DNA of 64,000 bases, taken from contig NW_024704772.1 in the NCBI RefSeq assembly GCF_018977255.1, positions 3,100,001 to 3,164,000 on the forward strand, written 5' to 3'. This stretch comes from Callorhinchus milii. Its lineage: Eukaryota. Position 1 is the stretch's first letter. Each line of letters begins with the position of its first letter. Positions 2,373 through 25,700 of this stretch are shown here, piece after piece. The position numbers were made by a program, and so were the translations under genes. A model generated the notes under the pieces. The model saw only the letters and a list, made by a program, of their open reading frames with translations. It ran no database searches and was not told the origin of the DNA.

Positions 2373-4157
2373 TCATGACCTAGAGACCAGCGTGTGCTGG
2401 TCAAAGAGGTATTCGGCCACGCCCAAGCTCTGCCCAGCGCCCAGCGATGCCAGGCTGCTGCTGTAGTCTCCCAGCATCTGCACCGTCTGCACACAGTGGC
2501 TCAGGAACCGCGAGGCCAGGAAGTCACACAGCTGCAAACAACAAGGTGGGAAGTTCTGTAAACGCTTCAGGAATTACTGTATCCGGTCTCCTGCTCAGCA
2601 CAATCATCCGACACAGGGTACAACTTGAGTGGGTGGGTGAGTGAGGGAGTGTGGGAAGTGAGGAGTGAGAGAGTGAATGAGAGAGAGTGAGTGTGGGAGT
2701 GAGGAGTGAATGAGTGAGAATGAGTGAGAGAATGAGTGAGAGAGAGTGCGGGAGTGAAGGAGCGTGGGAGAGAGTGAGTGAGAGCGTGGGAGTGAGTGAG
2801 TGAGCGAGCGAGTGAAAGAGAGAGAGCAAGAGAGAGTGAGGCCACATACTTGAGGATCATTCCTGTCGGCAGCGAGGTGGTGTAGTTCTTGGAGAGACTG
2901 GTTGAGGGATTTCTGTAATTGCAGAGCACACTGCAACGCCTCCAGTCCATTCTGCCACTCACTCTGGGCTGGCTTCTGCGTGAATAAAACAGCTCAGATC
3001 ATATCACGGTTGGCAGAGGGGGAGAGGGAGAAAAACATGGCCTTGCAGGGCTGTTAATAATAACAATAATCCTCACATATGATACAGGCCTTATCAGGTC
3101 TTCGAGAAGTCTCAAAGCGCTTCACAGGATGTACTGTAAAGTGCAGTGACTGTATACTTTGTGGGTGAAACGCGGCAGCCAATTGCGCACAGAAGCGTCC
3201 CCACAAACAGTCGCGGATTGTGTGGCCAATTTATTCTTTTTTTTTAGTGATTACCCCCGGAAAAGCGATCCGCCAATCGACTAACAACCGGGTTCCTTTC
3301 TGGGTAAACAGAGGCGCGTGTGTGTGGGGAGGAAGGAAACTTGCCCAATGTTTCGCCCCGGCCCGGGAATTGAACACAGGTTTCTCGCTTGCGAGGCGAG
3401 TGTTCTAACCACTGAGTTCCAGGACTAATGAGATGACGCACATACCTCAACGCTCTGCAGGTACATTCTCCCCCCGCGCCTCTTCTGATAGTCGATAAGC
3501 TCCTCGGCGGCTCTCCGTTCAGCTTCCGACATCCCGTGGAAAAACCTCGCAAAATGTTTCAGTGCTACATCATCACGTTCAAAGAAGAATGACTGGAATG
3601 AGAAGTAATCATTAGAGACAGTAAAGCTCCCTCTACACTGTGTGTCCACACTCCCAGGTCAGGGGTAGAGACACAGTAAAGCTCCCTCTACACTGTGCGT
3701 CCACACTCCCAGGTCAGGGGTAGAGACACAGTAAAGCTCCCTCTACACTGTGCGTCCACACTCCCAGGTCAGGGTCAGACACAGTAAAGCTCCGTCTACA
3801 CTGTGTGTCCACACTCCCAGGTCAGGGTCAGACACAGTAAAGCTCCCTCTACACTGAATGTCCACACTCCCAGGTCAGGGTCAGAGAGACAGTAAAGCTC
3901 AATGCATTACATTTACACGGCGCCTTTCACATCGGGAGGACGTCCCAAGATGCTGGTCTGCCAACAATTTGGACTCGAGCTGGGGGTTGGGATTAGGAGG
4001 GGTGGAGGGCAGGGAGGTGCAGTAACGTTAGCTAAGTGCTGGAGAGGTCACTCACCATAGCCAGGTACACGTAGGACGTGTAATACTCCTGGTTTATGAG
4101 CCGATTGATTGCTCTCTCACAGTCCGGGCAGTAGTTCTGTCTGATCCGAGACTCCAT
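2373..4157 (-). CDS. Ferritin paralog A, divergent, ferroxidase-deficient (177 aa, 4 coding exons)
   Basis: Exons 4157-4056 (102 nt), 3592-3446 (147), 2975-2850 (126) and 2531-2373 (159, with TGA), all GT-AG and phase 0, matching the vertebrate ferritin layout. Protein: [177 protein letters not shown]. Minus-strand AATAAA at 2135-2140. Confidence 0.93.
3058..3426 (-). mobile_element. tRNA-derived SINE copy
   Basis: Reverse complement of the same head, body and tail; lies in an intron of ferritin A. Boundaries approximate. Confidence 0.85.
3611..3901. repeat. Minisatellite, about 52-53 bp unit, about 5.5 copies, in an intron of ferritin A
   Basis: Near-identical direct repeats of ACAGTAAAGCTCCCTCTACACTGTG(T/C)GTCCACACTCCCAGGTCAGGG, with no unique spacers. 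Confidence 0.95.
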
Positions 4158-4290
4158 TGTCGGCAGGAGAGATCGACAGAACTCTCTCTAACTGTCTTCT
4201 ACCCTCTGGGGAGTGCCTGCAGGAGGGGCCGAGCTCTGAGACTGTCAGTTTGTCACACAAGGCAGACAAGCCACCCACCCACCCACAGGG

Positions 4291-22751: not shown

Positions 22752-25700
22752 CCACGGTGAGCATCTGCCTGGTTTCTGTGTCACACAAATAGACGCTGCA
22801 TCACAACTCCCCCCTCCCTACCCCATTGTCGAGCTCCACAAGTCCCTCACTGTTGCCCAAGTCCACCGCCTGGCTCTACCTCAGCTAAACATCACCCCCA
22901 CATCGCCCCAGCTCATATACGCCCTATAATAATAGCAATAATAATCCTTGCATTCGATACAGAGCCTTATCACGTCTTCGAGATGTCTCAAAGCACTTCA
23001 CTGCAAAGGGAATTGACTGTGGATTTTGGGGGGTGGGGGGGGTGGGGGTGGGGGTGTGGTTTGAACCATTTTTTTGCCCAGCCGGGTATCTGACCGTTGC
23101 TTAAGAGTCTCCAAACCCAACTGAGAATTCCCCACGTCCCACCCACACCTGGAAACCCCGGAGAGAGATGGTTGGAATGCTCTCTCTCTCTCCCTCTCCC
23201 CCTGGAGAGACGCCCCCTGCTCACCTAATTCTAGAGAGTATTAGGCACAAGTTGGTGAGAGCCAAGGCTTGGGGGTGTGTGTGTGTGTGTGGGGGGGGGG
23301 GGGGGGGGGAGCCCAGAGTGTGCGTGGGGGTAACTGCTGGAGTCTAACCAGCTAAGACCATATGGTTCGGGCTTTAAACCAGATCCTCCACACCCACAAG
23401 GTTACAGTCACACCCTTCCTCATCCTCACTTTCAAAGCCCTCCACGGCCTTGCTCCTCCCTACCTCTGTGACCTGCTAAATAGACCCCTACCCTCCCTGC
23501 CCTCCTCCTGATGCCAATCCCCAGCTCGGGTCCAAATCCCTGACTGCCCAGCGCCTTGGGACATCCTCCCACCACAAAAGGGCAGCGTAAACATAACCTC
23601 TTGTTGTCTCCACAGGTATCTGCAGCTCCGTGTTGTCCTGATTTCAGACTCCTTCGCTTCCCGCTCGTACCTCTCCCTCCCTCCCTGTCCCTCCCGCCAT
23701 CTCTCGCTCACTAACACACCTCCAACTTGGCCGGCTACTAACAGACGCAACAACCCATTCGCAGTCTGGAGAGTCCTGGGTACAGAGGGCGAGCGGGGAG
23801 AGGGTATCCAAGGGCAGGAAAGCTTGTGTGCTTGTGCCAACTCCTGTGCCAGGGGCACAACCAGGCAACCAAGTCCTTTCCAAACTCACTAACTCCACTA
23901 ACATCTCGGGAGCACCTTCAGGTCAGATCTCAATCCCACGTGGATATCATTAACGCTTGCCTTTAACACAGCGTCTCGCGGTGCTTCACTGAGCTTCAAG
24001 TGAATTGCTGTCGAGTGTAGTGACTGTGCTTTTGTTTCTAACCCAGAAGCGACTCAATAAAATGCAACCGCAGAGTAGCACCACGACACCAAGTCCTCAC
24101 CAGGCTCCACTGGCTTCCAATTACGGAACGCATCGATTTCAAGATCCTCTCTTTATTTCCCCCCCCCCGGCAGCCCCACCCTACCTCTCCGATCTGCTTA
24201 CTCCCCCCTCCCCCACCACACCACCCGCTGCCTCCGCTCTTCTGGCTCCGGCCTCCTGTTCGTCCCTCGCCCCCTCCGCTCTACCATTGAAGGCCATACA
24301 TTCAGCCACTATGCCCCGAAACTCTCTCACTCAATCCCTCCACCTTGTCCCCCTCCCTCAGACTCCATCACTGTCGAGCACTCTACCCCGGGTGTTGTTG
24401 CAACCTCCAGCAATAGCCCAACCCAGCTCCAGCCCTGCTCACCCACCAGCAATACCCACACAAACCAGCTGTGCCCATTCACTGATGTGGACCAAACGCC
24501 ACCATCACCAGTCCCCCCCCCCGCTCTCCTGGGACCGACCAGCCACGTTGTGGCGGTGTAAACTCCGGCAAGGCTCCAGCCATCAACCAACCTCGTCTCC
24601 AGTCGCTTTCACCCAAAACTCTGTCTTTGCTTCTCAGTAAATATATTTTATCAGTAATAAAAATATTAAAACTCTCCCGATTCCGTTGATCTTATGGAAT
24701 TATTAATAATAATCCTTACATTTGATACAACACCTCATCACGTCAAAACGTTTCACAGGATACATCGTAAAGTGGAGTGACTGTATCTGGAGGGCAAAAC
24801 ACGGCAGCCAATTAATTGGGCACAGCAGCGTCCCACAAACCGTCGTGGAATGTGAGACCAATTTTTTTTATGGGATTATATTCGATGAACAGAAACCTTT
24901 CAATACAAGTTACAAAAATAATCAAAAGGTAAAGAATTTATTGTGACAGAAAAGATCCCAATCGAACACATATATATAAATATATACACTGCAGCCTTAC
25001 TACACAGCAAAGCTGGCTACGAGGTTTGACGTCTTAGCTCTGGGCAGTCTCTCCCCCCTCCCCACATTACCCCACCACCACCACAAGTTAAAAGCATTCA
25101 CATCCCCCACTTTCCCCGTATCTGAAAAGCAGTTATACAAAGTGCATCAAACAGGTTTGGGGCTGTGTTTAGAGGACGTTACGTTGCGCGTGTTCGTTAG
25201 TGAGGCCATTCGGTTAGTTTCCAGGTAAGATGGGCGAGCGACGAGATACAAGTGTTTCTTACAAGACAATGTGCGTCAAAGTGCAGCGGGAGCGTGGGAT
25301 AAACAGACGCCATCATAACCCATTCTAGATTGCATCCCAGTCCAGCTCTAGATTCAACCTCAGACCAGCTCTAGGCACATCGATCTAGAACAGCGCGAGA
25401 TTCTCTTTCCTGCACAGCACATCTGGAGCCCGATAGCTAGAATACAGCAGGATGCTCTCGCAAACAATAATAATAATCCTCGCATTTGATATAGCGTCTT
25501 ATCACGTCGTGGAGACATCTCAAAGCGCTTCACAGAATTATACCACGGTCTTCGAACAGCGGGAAAAAAAAATCTGCGGAAACCTTGGGAGATGTCTGCT
25601 CACAGCAGCAGCAGGAAAGGGATTTATTTTACCCCCCCTCCACCCACACAAAAAATAAAGCAAAGACCTGAATAAAACCAGCAGCAAGCCCCCAAACAGC

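Follow-up and report, generated by a model that had tools for sequence, protein, structure and literature searches.

A candidate mitochondrial ferritin of cartilaginous fishes within an M/L-type ferritin cluster of Callorhinchus milii

Mitochondrial storage of iron in vertebrates has been described through the mammalian protein FTMT. FTMT is characterized as an intronless retrocopy of FTH1 with no TATA or CCAAT box (PMC7760355), free of an iron-responsive element (IRE) and carrying a leader that is cleaved (PMC7760355, PMC11719527), and mammals, Drosophila and plants are said to be the only groups that have it (PMC13010531, PMC4118045). The M chains of teleosts and amphibians are described as orthologs of the mammalian L chain (PMC4117605). 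No description of a shark mitochondrial ferritin was found in the literature searched, whose coverage leaves out most subscription journals, and PMC7530620 and PMC6099262 added nothing on leader-bearing ferritins. Here we analyze a 64,000-nucleotide stretch of the Callorhinchus milii genome (contig NW_024704772.1, positions 3,100,001 to 3,164,000; hereafter the window) containing three ferritin genes (A, B and C) and a COX17-like gene (D), and we propose that ferritin C is probably an intron-containing mitochondrial ferritin of cartilaginous fishes, a candidate identified from sequence, which would have originated as a tandem duplicate separately from mammalian FTMT. All four genes have intact open frames and GT-AG introns, and they lie where a first-pass annotation of the window had placed them, encoding 177 (A, minus strand), 176 (B, plus), 217 (C, minus) and 62 (D, plus) amino acids in two head-to-head pairs with start codons at 4157 and 8795 (A/B) and at 18191 and 19971 (C/D). 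The coordinates of these and other features are collected in Table 1.

Ferritin C has no methionine at the usual ferritin start, and its open frame begins upstream with a leader resembling a mitochondrial presequence. A 1026-nt contig from sequencing run X1 aligns with 17967-18228, covering the leader and breaking exactly at the first splice donor of C, and its remaining 764 letters correspond, in a comparison by length only, to exons 2-4 up to the AATAAA signal. The runs are described as RNA-type, none being formally recorded as RNA, and contig mapping covered the C/D region, with A and B lying outside the mapped stretch; the lack of contig cover of C exon 1 in runs X3 and X5 counts as evidence neither way. 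Residues 64-217 of C are those of XP_042201066.1, with a 100% match over exon 2, and all ferroxidase ligands are present (E27, Y34, E61, E62, H65, E107 and Q141, in the human H numbering used throughout). As the first-pass annotation had stated, C is without an IRE: no Rfam match was obtained in 17960-20100 even at E<=10, the untranslated region (UTR) data being those of C. milii alone.

The presequence proposed in that annotation gains strength from its conservation in 17 species of sharks and rays. Among the matches listed in a search with a 154-aa model of C (the best 120 of 867), at least 11 were leader-bearing shark or ray proteins, and cluster look-ups contributed seven more, yielding at least 18 orthologous records with a leader. 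They are filed with names including 'ferritin heavy chain-like'. Taken together with C, all 19 leaders start with the motif MG[SR][LR][WR] and 15 contain RR[GA], whose position relative to the helix-A motif is -24/-25 in 13 of them, C included; a second methionine ahead of helix A occurs in a single sequence. The 919 leader residues comprise 150 Arg+Lys and seven Asp+Glu. Both motifs, which were chosen after alignment and are thus post hoc, co-occur in two of 200,000 shuffles of the C leader. The start motif is absent from all of 21 further long ferritin records, which are largely UTR read-throughs from mammals, and 13 of those retain the usual methionine. A fixed start motif and an RR[GA] at fixed distance, retained from holocephalans to elasmobranchs, imply selection on the leader. 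In the ferritin body, E27, Y34, E61, E62, H65 and E107 are conserved in 19 of 19 sequences and Q141 likewise as aligned, and an AlphaFold model of the Heptranchias ortholog has residues 1-56 unstructured, followed by normal ferritin helices. N-myristoylation, which calls for Ser/Thr at position 6, was considered for the MG start and rejected, that residue being missing in most leaders. No homolog was returned by C exon 1 alone; exon 2 as query retrieved nine proteins and missed even B, so the blanks of both queries are uninformative. An Atlas search with the leader gave no useful match.

The structure and location of C set it apart from FTMT, with which it shares a long Arg-rich leader, a complete ferroxidase centre and the absence of an IRE (PMC7760355, PMC13010531, PMC4118045). 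Unlike FTMT, C contains CCAAT boxes and is split by three introns at the usual sites; an M chain is its tandem neighbour, and our best tree places C outside the H clade. Its three GT-AG introns put C outside the FTMT family, though it probably works in an FTMT-like manner. The mitochondrial ferritins of Drosophila and plants are likewise directed to mitochondria (PMC13010531, PMC11719527), while C belongs among vertebrate ferritins. In a 34-row tree that included C and eight of the 18 orthologs, left out A because of its long branch and contained no FTMT sequence, C and its orthologs group together with a support of 97/91, separate from the H chains, which form a clade of their own at 97/98. 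A quick tree of 76 rows, 16 of them orthologs, places all 13 leaderless shark and ray M-type rows outside the leader-bearing clade. A C ortholog and an M-type ferritin occur on equal-sized contigs in eight of the nine species with data, with accession gaps of 3 in Pristis, 4 in Stegostoma, 5 in Chiloscyllium plagiosum, then 32, 58 and about 480, and thousands in two; these figures hint at conserved linkage, short of a synteny map. C would have arisen as a DNA-level duplicate at an M/L locus, keeping three introns, losing the IRE and the usual start methionine, and gaining an upstream start from which comes an Arg-rich, nearly acid-free, unstructured leader of 25-60 residues.

The remaining ferritins of the window provide the context for this origin. 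Coding exons 1-3 measure 102, 147 and 126 nt in both A and B and 225, 147 and 123 nt in C, with pairwise identities of 54% (A-B), 47% (A-C) and 66% (B-C). The Pfam cut-off for PF00210 (Ferritin) is passed by B, the core of C and one C ortholog, and the exons of A match exclusively ferritins in the Protein Data Bank (PDB). No additional ferritin copy was found in the window. A separate H chain of C. milii is on record outside the cluster (K4GFZ3), which makes this a non-H, M/L-type ferritin locus. The cluster resembles the vertebrate locus for M/L ferritins and is mostly an ordinary tandem array, and a tandem M/L-type cluster whose members specialised is the best explanation of the sequences. 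A further non-H ferritin of C. milii, V9LBS9 (P0086), is encoded outside the window. Several sharks show strong amplification of their M-type ferritins, which form 90% clusters of 69, 127 and 138 members, and Stegostoma, Chiloscyllium and Hemiscyllium carry numerous near-identical M-type copies on a single contig, compared with the single B in the C. milii window.

Ferritin B, identical to NP_001279217.1, is best explained from its sequence as an ordinary cytosolic M chain under IRE control and ARE (antioxidant-responsive element) induction. It retains every ferroxidase ligand, falls outside the H clade and bears the sole Rfam IRE of the window; the ARE-type site and TATA box reported for it were also recovered, as consensus matches. 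It resembles teleost and amphibian M chains in its ligands, IRE, four exons and position outside the H clade, and differs from them by an Asn at position 131 of the three-fold channel (D131N). Asp occupies this position in 146 of 179 scored ferritin records, C has Gly there and its shark and ray orthologs Glu, and such changes may alter iron entry. The label 'ferritin mitochondrial' on many C. milii GenBank cDNAs of B, which has no leader, is probably an error.

Ferritin A is best read as a divergent, ferroxidase-dead, L-like subunit encoded by a maintained gene rather than a relic. It has lost three ferroxidase ligands (H65A, E107Q and Q141C) and kept E27 and E62. With the bullfrog L chain (PDB 1rcd, 1rci) it has in common E107Q, the loss of Q141 and LQSVE at the end of exon 2, and the E107Q motif of both is found in none of 182 stored H/M-type records. 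A also lacks, unlike the frog chain, H65, E134, an IRE and most inner-surface carboxylates, so that of the features of an amphibian-type L chain it displays the lost ferroxidase centre and E107Q, and not the carboxylates. The bullfrog L chain is the top PDB match in three of five A queries, namely exon 2 and sub-stretches of exons 3 and 4 picked after the whole-exon results. No Rfam IRE was found upstream of A even at E<=10, in line with the earlier statement that A has no intact IRE; a decayed IRE was also considered there and rejected (z 0.83, no Rfam match). A would be an intact chain without ferroxidase activity that co-assembles with other subunits. That A is instead a decaying, functionless copy and not an L-type subunit is unlikely, although it finds some purchase in the data: A has the longest branch (1.06) and is unplaced in the 76-row quick tree, which included no L sequence; beyond the ferroxidase ligands it has lost channel residue E134 (E134A) and three of the four inner carboxylates (G57, E60, A61, R64, one of four acidic, at the positions relevant in L chains); its whole exons 3 and 4 match H chains first; and no A ortholog turned up, RNA contig mapping having taken in the C/D region only. 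Set against this are a frame and splice sites still intact in a gene 54% identical to B, codon positions of which the second are best conserved (86, 94 and 55 identical of 125 at first, second and third positions), and the frog L matches just described. The first-pass view of A as catalytically degenerate stands; its description as inactive is not confirmed, given an open frame, canonical splice sites and B-like sizes of exons 1-3. The proposal of local duplication into cytosolic, mitochondrial and inactive ferritins fares similarly, being borne out by an IRE-controlled, cytosolic B and an IRE-less C with a presequence-like leader and only in part by A, which is ferroxidase-dead yet seems to be a maintained gene.

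The fourth gene had been grouped with the ferritins as a metal-homeostasis paralog. D matches the Pfam COX17 model at 36.2 bits, compared with 17.2 for CHCH models, and is unrelated to ferritin. It corresponds to UniProt V9LHS4 ('COX17-like'); its exons 1 and 2 are joined in contigs of three runs from two studies and all three exons in X1, while the absence of X3 cover is evidence neither way. Aligned with human COX17 (PDB 2rn9), D retains all four cysteines of the twin CX9C motif as well as a COX17-type C-terminus, and is missing the copper-binding Cys-Cys, the loss of which abolishes copper binding in yeast (PMC7909247). COX19 and CHCHD7/Cox23 lack this pair as well, and D is closer in sequence to COX17. 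A role in metal handling is not upheld; the missing Cys-Cys makes D probably an intermembrane-space protein without chaperone activity, and its sequence and contigs suggest a transcribed COX17 paralog that is probably unable to carry copper. The interaction of COX17 with MICOS, the organizing system of mitochondrial contact sites and cristae, is copper-stimulated (PMC4463469), and a role for D at COX17 partners such as MICOS is speculation. A profile search with D exon 2 retrieved nothing beyond D and two unrelated repeats; from a metagenome scan came a pair of bacterial matches by chance, one of which was inspected; and the Atlas held COX17 clusters only below 0.9. No D ortholog emerged from these weak searches. 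No account of a D-type COX17 paralog was found in the literature searched.

The head-to-head position of C and D, with start codons 1.8 kb apart, had suggested a co-regulated mitochondrial pair, and one could picture a metal pair driven by a single bidirectional promoter: contigs for both genes occur in runs X1 and X2, and the E-boxes upstream of C are palindromic. Bidirectional promoters typically have divergent starts within about 1 kb. Contig ends, which are a weak hint of transcription starts, lie at 18228 and 18290 for C and at 19946-19948 for D in three runs, placing the 5' ends about 1.7 kb apart, beyond this spacing, with about 1 kb of multi-copy repeats between them (summed contig depth across the 18600-19560 bins runs from hundreds to more than 100,000). 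The CCAAT/E-box block adjoins C only, spacing is tight throughout, the next gene ending about 250 nt past D, and without copper ligands in D the logic of a metal pair is weak. A co-regulated pair of this kind is accordingly improbable, a shared C/D promoter is unlikely, and the position of D beside C is most likely incidental. The promoter described for C in the first-pass annotation is present in its parts, since none of the other 121 N-free 500-nt bins analyzed alongside it, itself included in that number, is as rich in CpG as this region, which holds five of the 16 CACGTG of the window and three CCAAT boxes on the sense strand of C. These motifs are not independent, however, because all stem from local triplication of one unit of 80-90 nt.

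Several observations weigh against our reading of C, both as to its separate origin and as to its leader. In the 76-row quick tree the leader-bearing clade has a support of 84 in the Shimodaira-Hasegawa-like approximate likelihood-ratio test, with C on a long branch, and approximately unbiased (AU) tests do not reject a grouping of C with B (p 0.27) or of the leader clade with H (0.25), with shark H (0.08) or with amniote H (0.06); given these values, introns and location speak more strongly than the tree for the independence of C from FTMT. Cetorhinus is a miss for linkage, its one M-type record being found on a different contig. The leader is absent from both public C. milii models of C, one of which begins at the internal Met64 while the other takes in intron-derived residues, and the RNA-type contigs over it come from a single study. 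A weak, low-depth X2 contig lies at 18305-18578, where out-of-frame ATGs are located; its source may be a more extended leader, antisense RNA arising upstream or carried-over DNA. When the leader stretch, with 78% GC, is shuffled, it remains open in 68% of cases, 32% of these being basic and acid-free; mammalian FTH1 read-through extensions are Arg-rich too; and a profile of 17 elasmobranch leaders gives that of C 4.4 bits, equalled by 135 of 2000 shuffles. Finally, several shark leaders open like signal peptides, with 15-19 uncharged residues.

This last feature bears on the possibility that the leader is a signal peptide and propeptide, cut by a convertase at RR[GA], and that C is a secreted or a yolk or vesicle ferritin. 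The uncharged runs of Heptranchias, Cetorhinus, Scyliorhinus canicula and Chiloscyllium punctatum are Leu-rich, leader hydrophobicity (best nine residues) ranges from 1.3 up to 2.5, and the dibasic site is conserved. In C. milii, Rhincodon and Narcine the leader has a maximum of just 1.3-1.4 and is interrupted by Arg, falling well short of the 3.2 of the single control, a likely ZP signal peptide in the window, and the near-total absence of acidic residues along the whole leader fits a presequence better than a signal peptide, leaving secretion improbable. A translated but non-targeting leader, which would leave C as an IRE-independent ferritin of the cytosol or nucleus whose basic tail is disordered, would suit the variable length (24-59 residues) and poor alignment of the leaders and the basic composition that a GC-rich former 5' UTR yields by default, yet it is the least probable of these readings in view of the fixed start motif and the RR[GA] held at a fixed distance in holocephalans and elasmobranchs. 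We accordingly retain a mitochondrial destination for C. In the manner of presequences generally, the leader would be read by the TOM/TIM23 import route, and the matrix peptidase would remove it at RR[GA] or close by; the mature chain would assemble as a ferroxidase-active 24-mer, which would oxidise and store matrix Fe(II), buffering it independently of iron regulatory protein (IRP) control. C would thereby act like mammalian FTMT while apparently being separate in origin.

Table 1. Positions of the genes and other sequence features discussed, numbered from the first letter of the window
Feature	Position	Strand	Details or basis
Ferritin A, 177 aa	2373-4157	minus	AATAAA near 2135-2140
A coding exons	4157-4056, 3592-3446, 2975-2850, 2531-2373	minus	
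55-nt tandem repeat	3614-3900		5.3 copies, 93% matches; A intron 1
B promoter ARE-type site	8554-8564	minus	reads TGACTCAGC; consensus match only
B promoter TATAAA	8634	plus	consensus match only
B IRE	8675-8707	plus	Rfam RF00037, 42.8 bits (gathering 34)
Ferritin B, M-type chain, 176 aa	8795-11550	plus	AATAAA 11983
B coding exons	8795-8896, 10381-10527, 11033-11158, 11395-11550	plus	
Codons around channel position 131	11395-11410 (B), 15450-15435 (C)		
Ferritin C, 217 aa	15292-18191	minus	AATAAA near 14960
C coding exons	18191-17967, 16945-16799, 16353-16231, 15450-15292	minus	
GC-rich 18-nt minisatellite	17387-17957		C intron 1
C N-terminal leader, 41 codons, presequence-like	18069-18191	minus	X1 contig; shark and ray orthologs
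C upstream block, triplicated unit	18247-18482	minus	3 CCAAT + 5 CACGTG; CpG-rich stretch
Multi-copy interspersed repeats between C and D 5' ends	18600-19560		contig depth
COX17-like gene D, 62 aa, twin CX9C	19946-24679	plus	spliced contigs X1, X2, X5
D exons	19946-20074 (exon 1, ATG 19971), 22667-22756 (exon 2, stop 22749-22751), 23616-24679 (non-coding exon 3)	plus	
Snf7 gene	about 26570-28871	minus	Pfam; ends ~250 nt from D
Ubiquitin-conjugating (UBC) gene	about 33680-40596	minus	Pfam
ZP gene	about 42600-47500	minus	Pfam
Importin-like gene	from about 50900	plus	Pfam

Beyond D, the window contains four further genes assigned through Pfam, which from their sequences would be CHMP2A, UBE2M, a ZP3-like and a TNPO3-like gene. 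Rfam reports 11 tRNA matches in the window (for example 4589-4660 and 12862-12934), which by context we interpret as the tRNA-like heads of an abundant repeat of the short interspersed nuclear element (SINE) type and not as tRNA genes. Among the ferritin records, a mammal-like ferritin H (P0081) is filed as Yersinia pestis, probably through host contamination.

The leader-bearing ferritin of cartilaginous fishes has, from its sequence, a good claim to be considered as a candidate second mitochondrial ferritin of vertebrates. On balance, and with somewhat less assurance than for C itself, we favour a mitochondrial ferritin present throughout cartilaginous fishes, derived from the M/L locus and older than the chimaera-shark split, such that vertebrates would have evolved mitochondrial ferritin twice, by DNA duplication here and by retroposition in mammals, dropping the IRE each time; in C. 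milii it would lie beside a copper-blind COX17 paralog that possibly modulates COX17 partners. For annotation, this analysis corrects a C that is truncated in two public models and a leaderless B that bears a 'mitochondrial' label. If the proposal holds, retention of this clade by chimaeras, sharks and rays would upset the mammal, Drosophila and plant distribution of mitochondrial ferritin and reveal its second independent origin in vertebrates, affording a natural comparison of what selects for iron storage in the matrix and of why IRE control is dropped.

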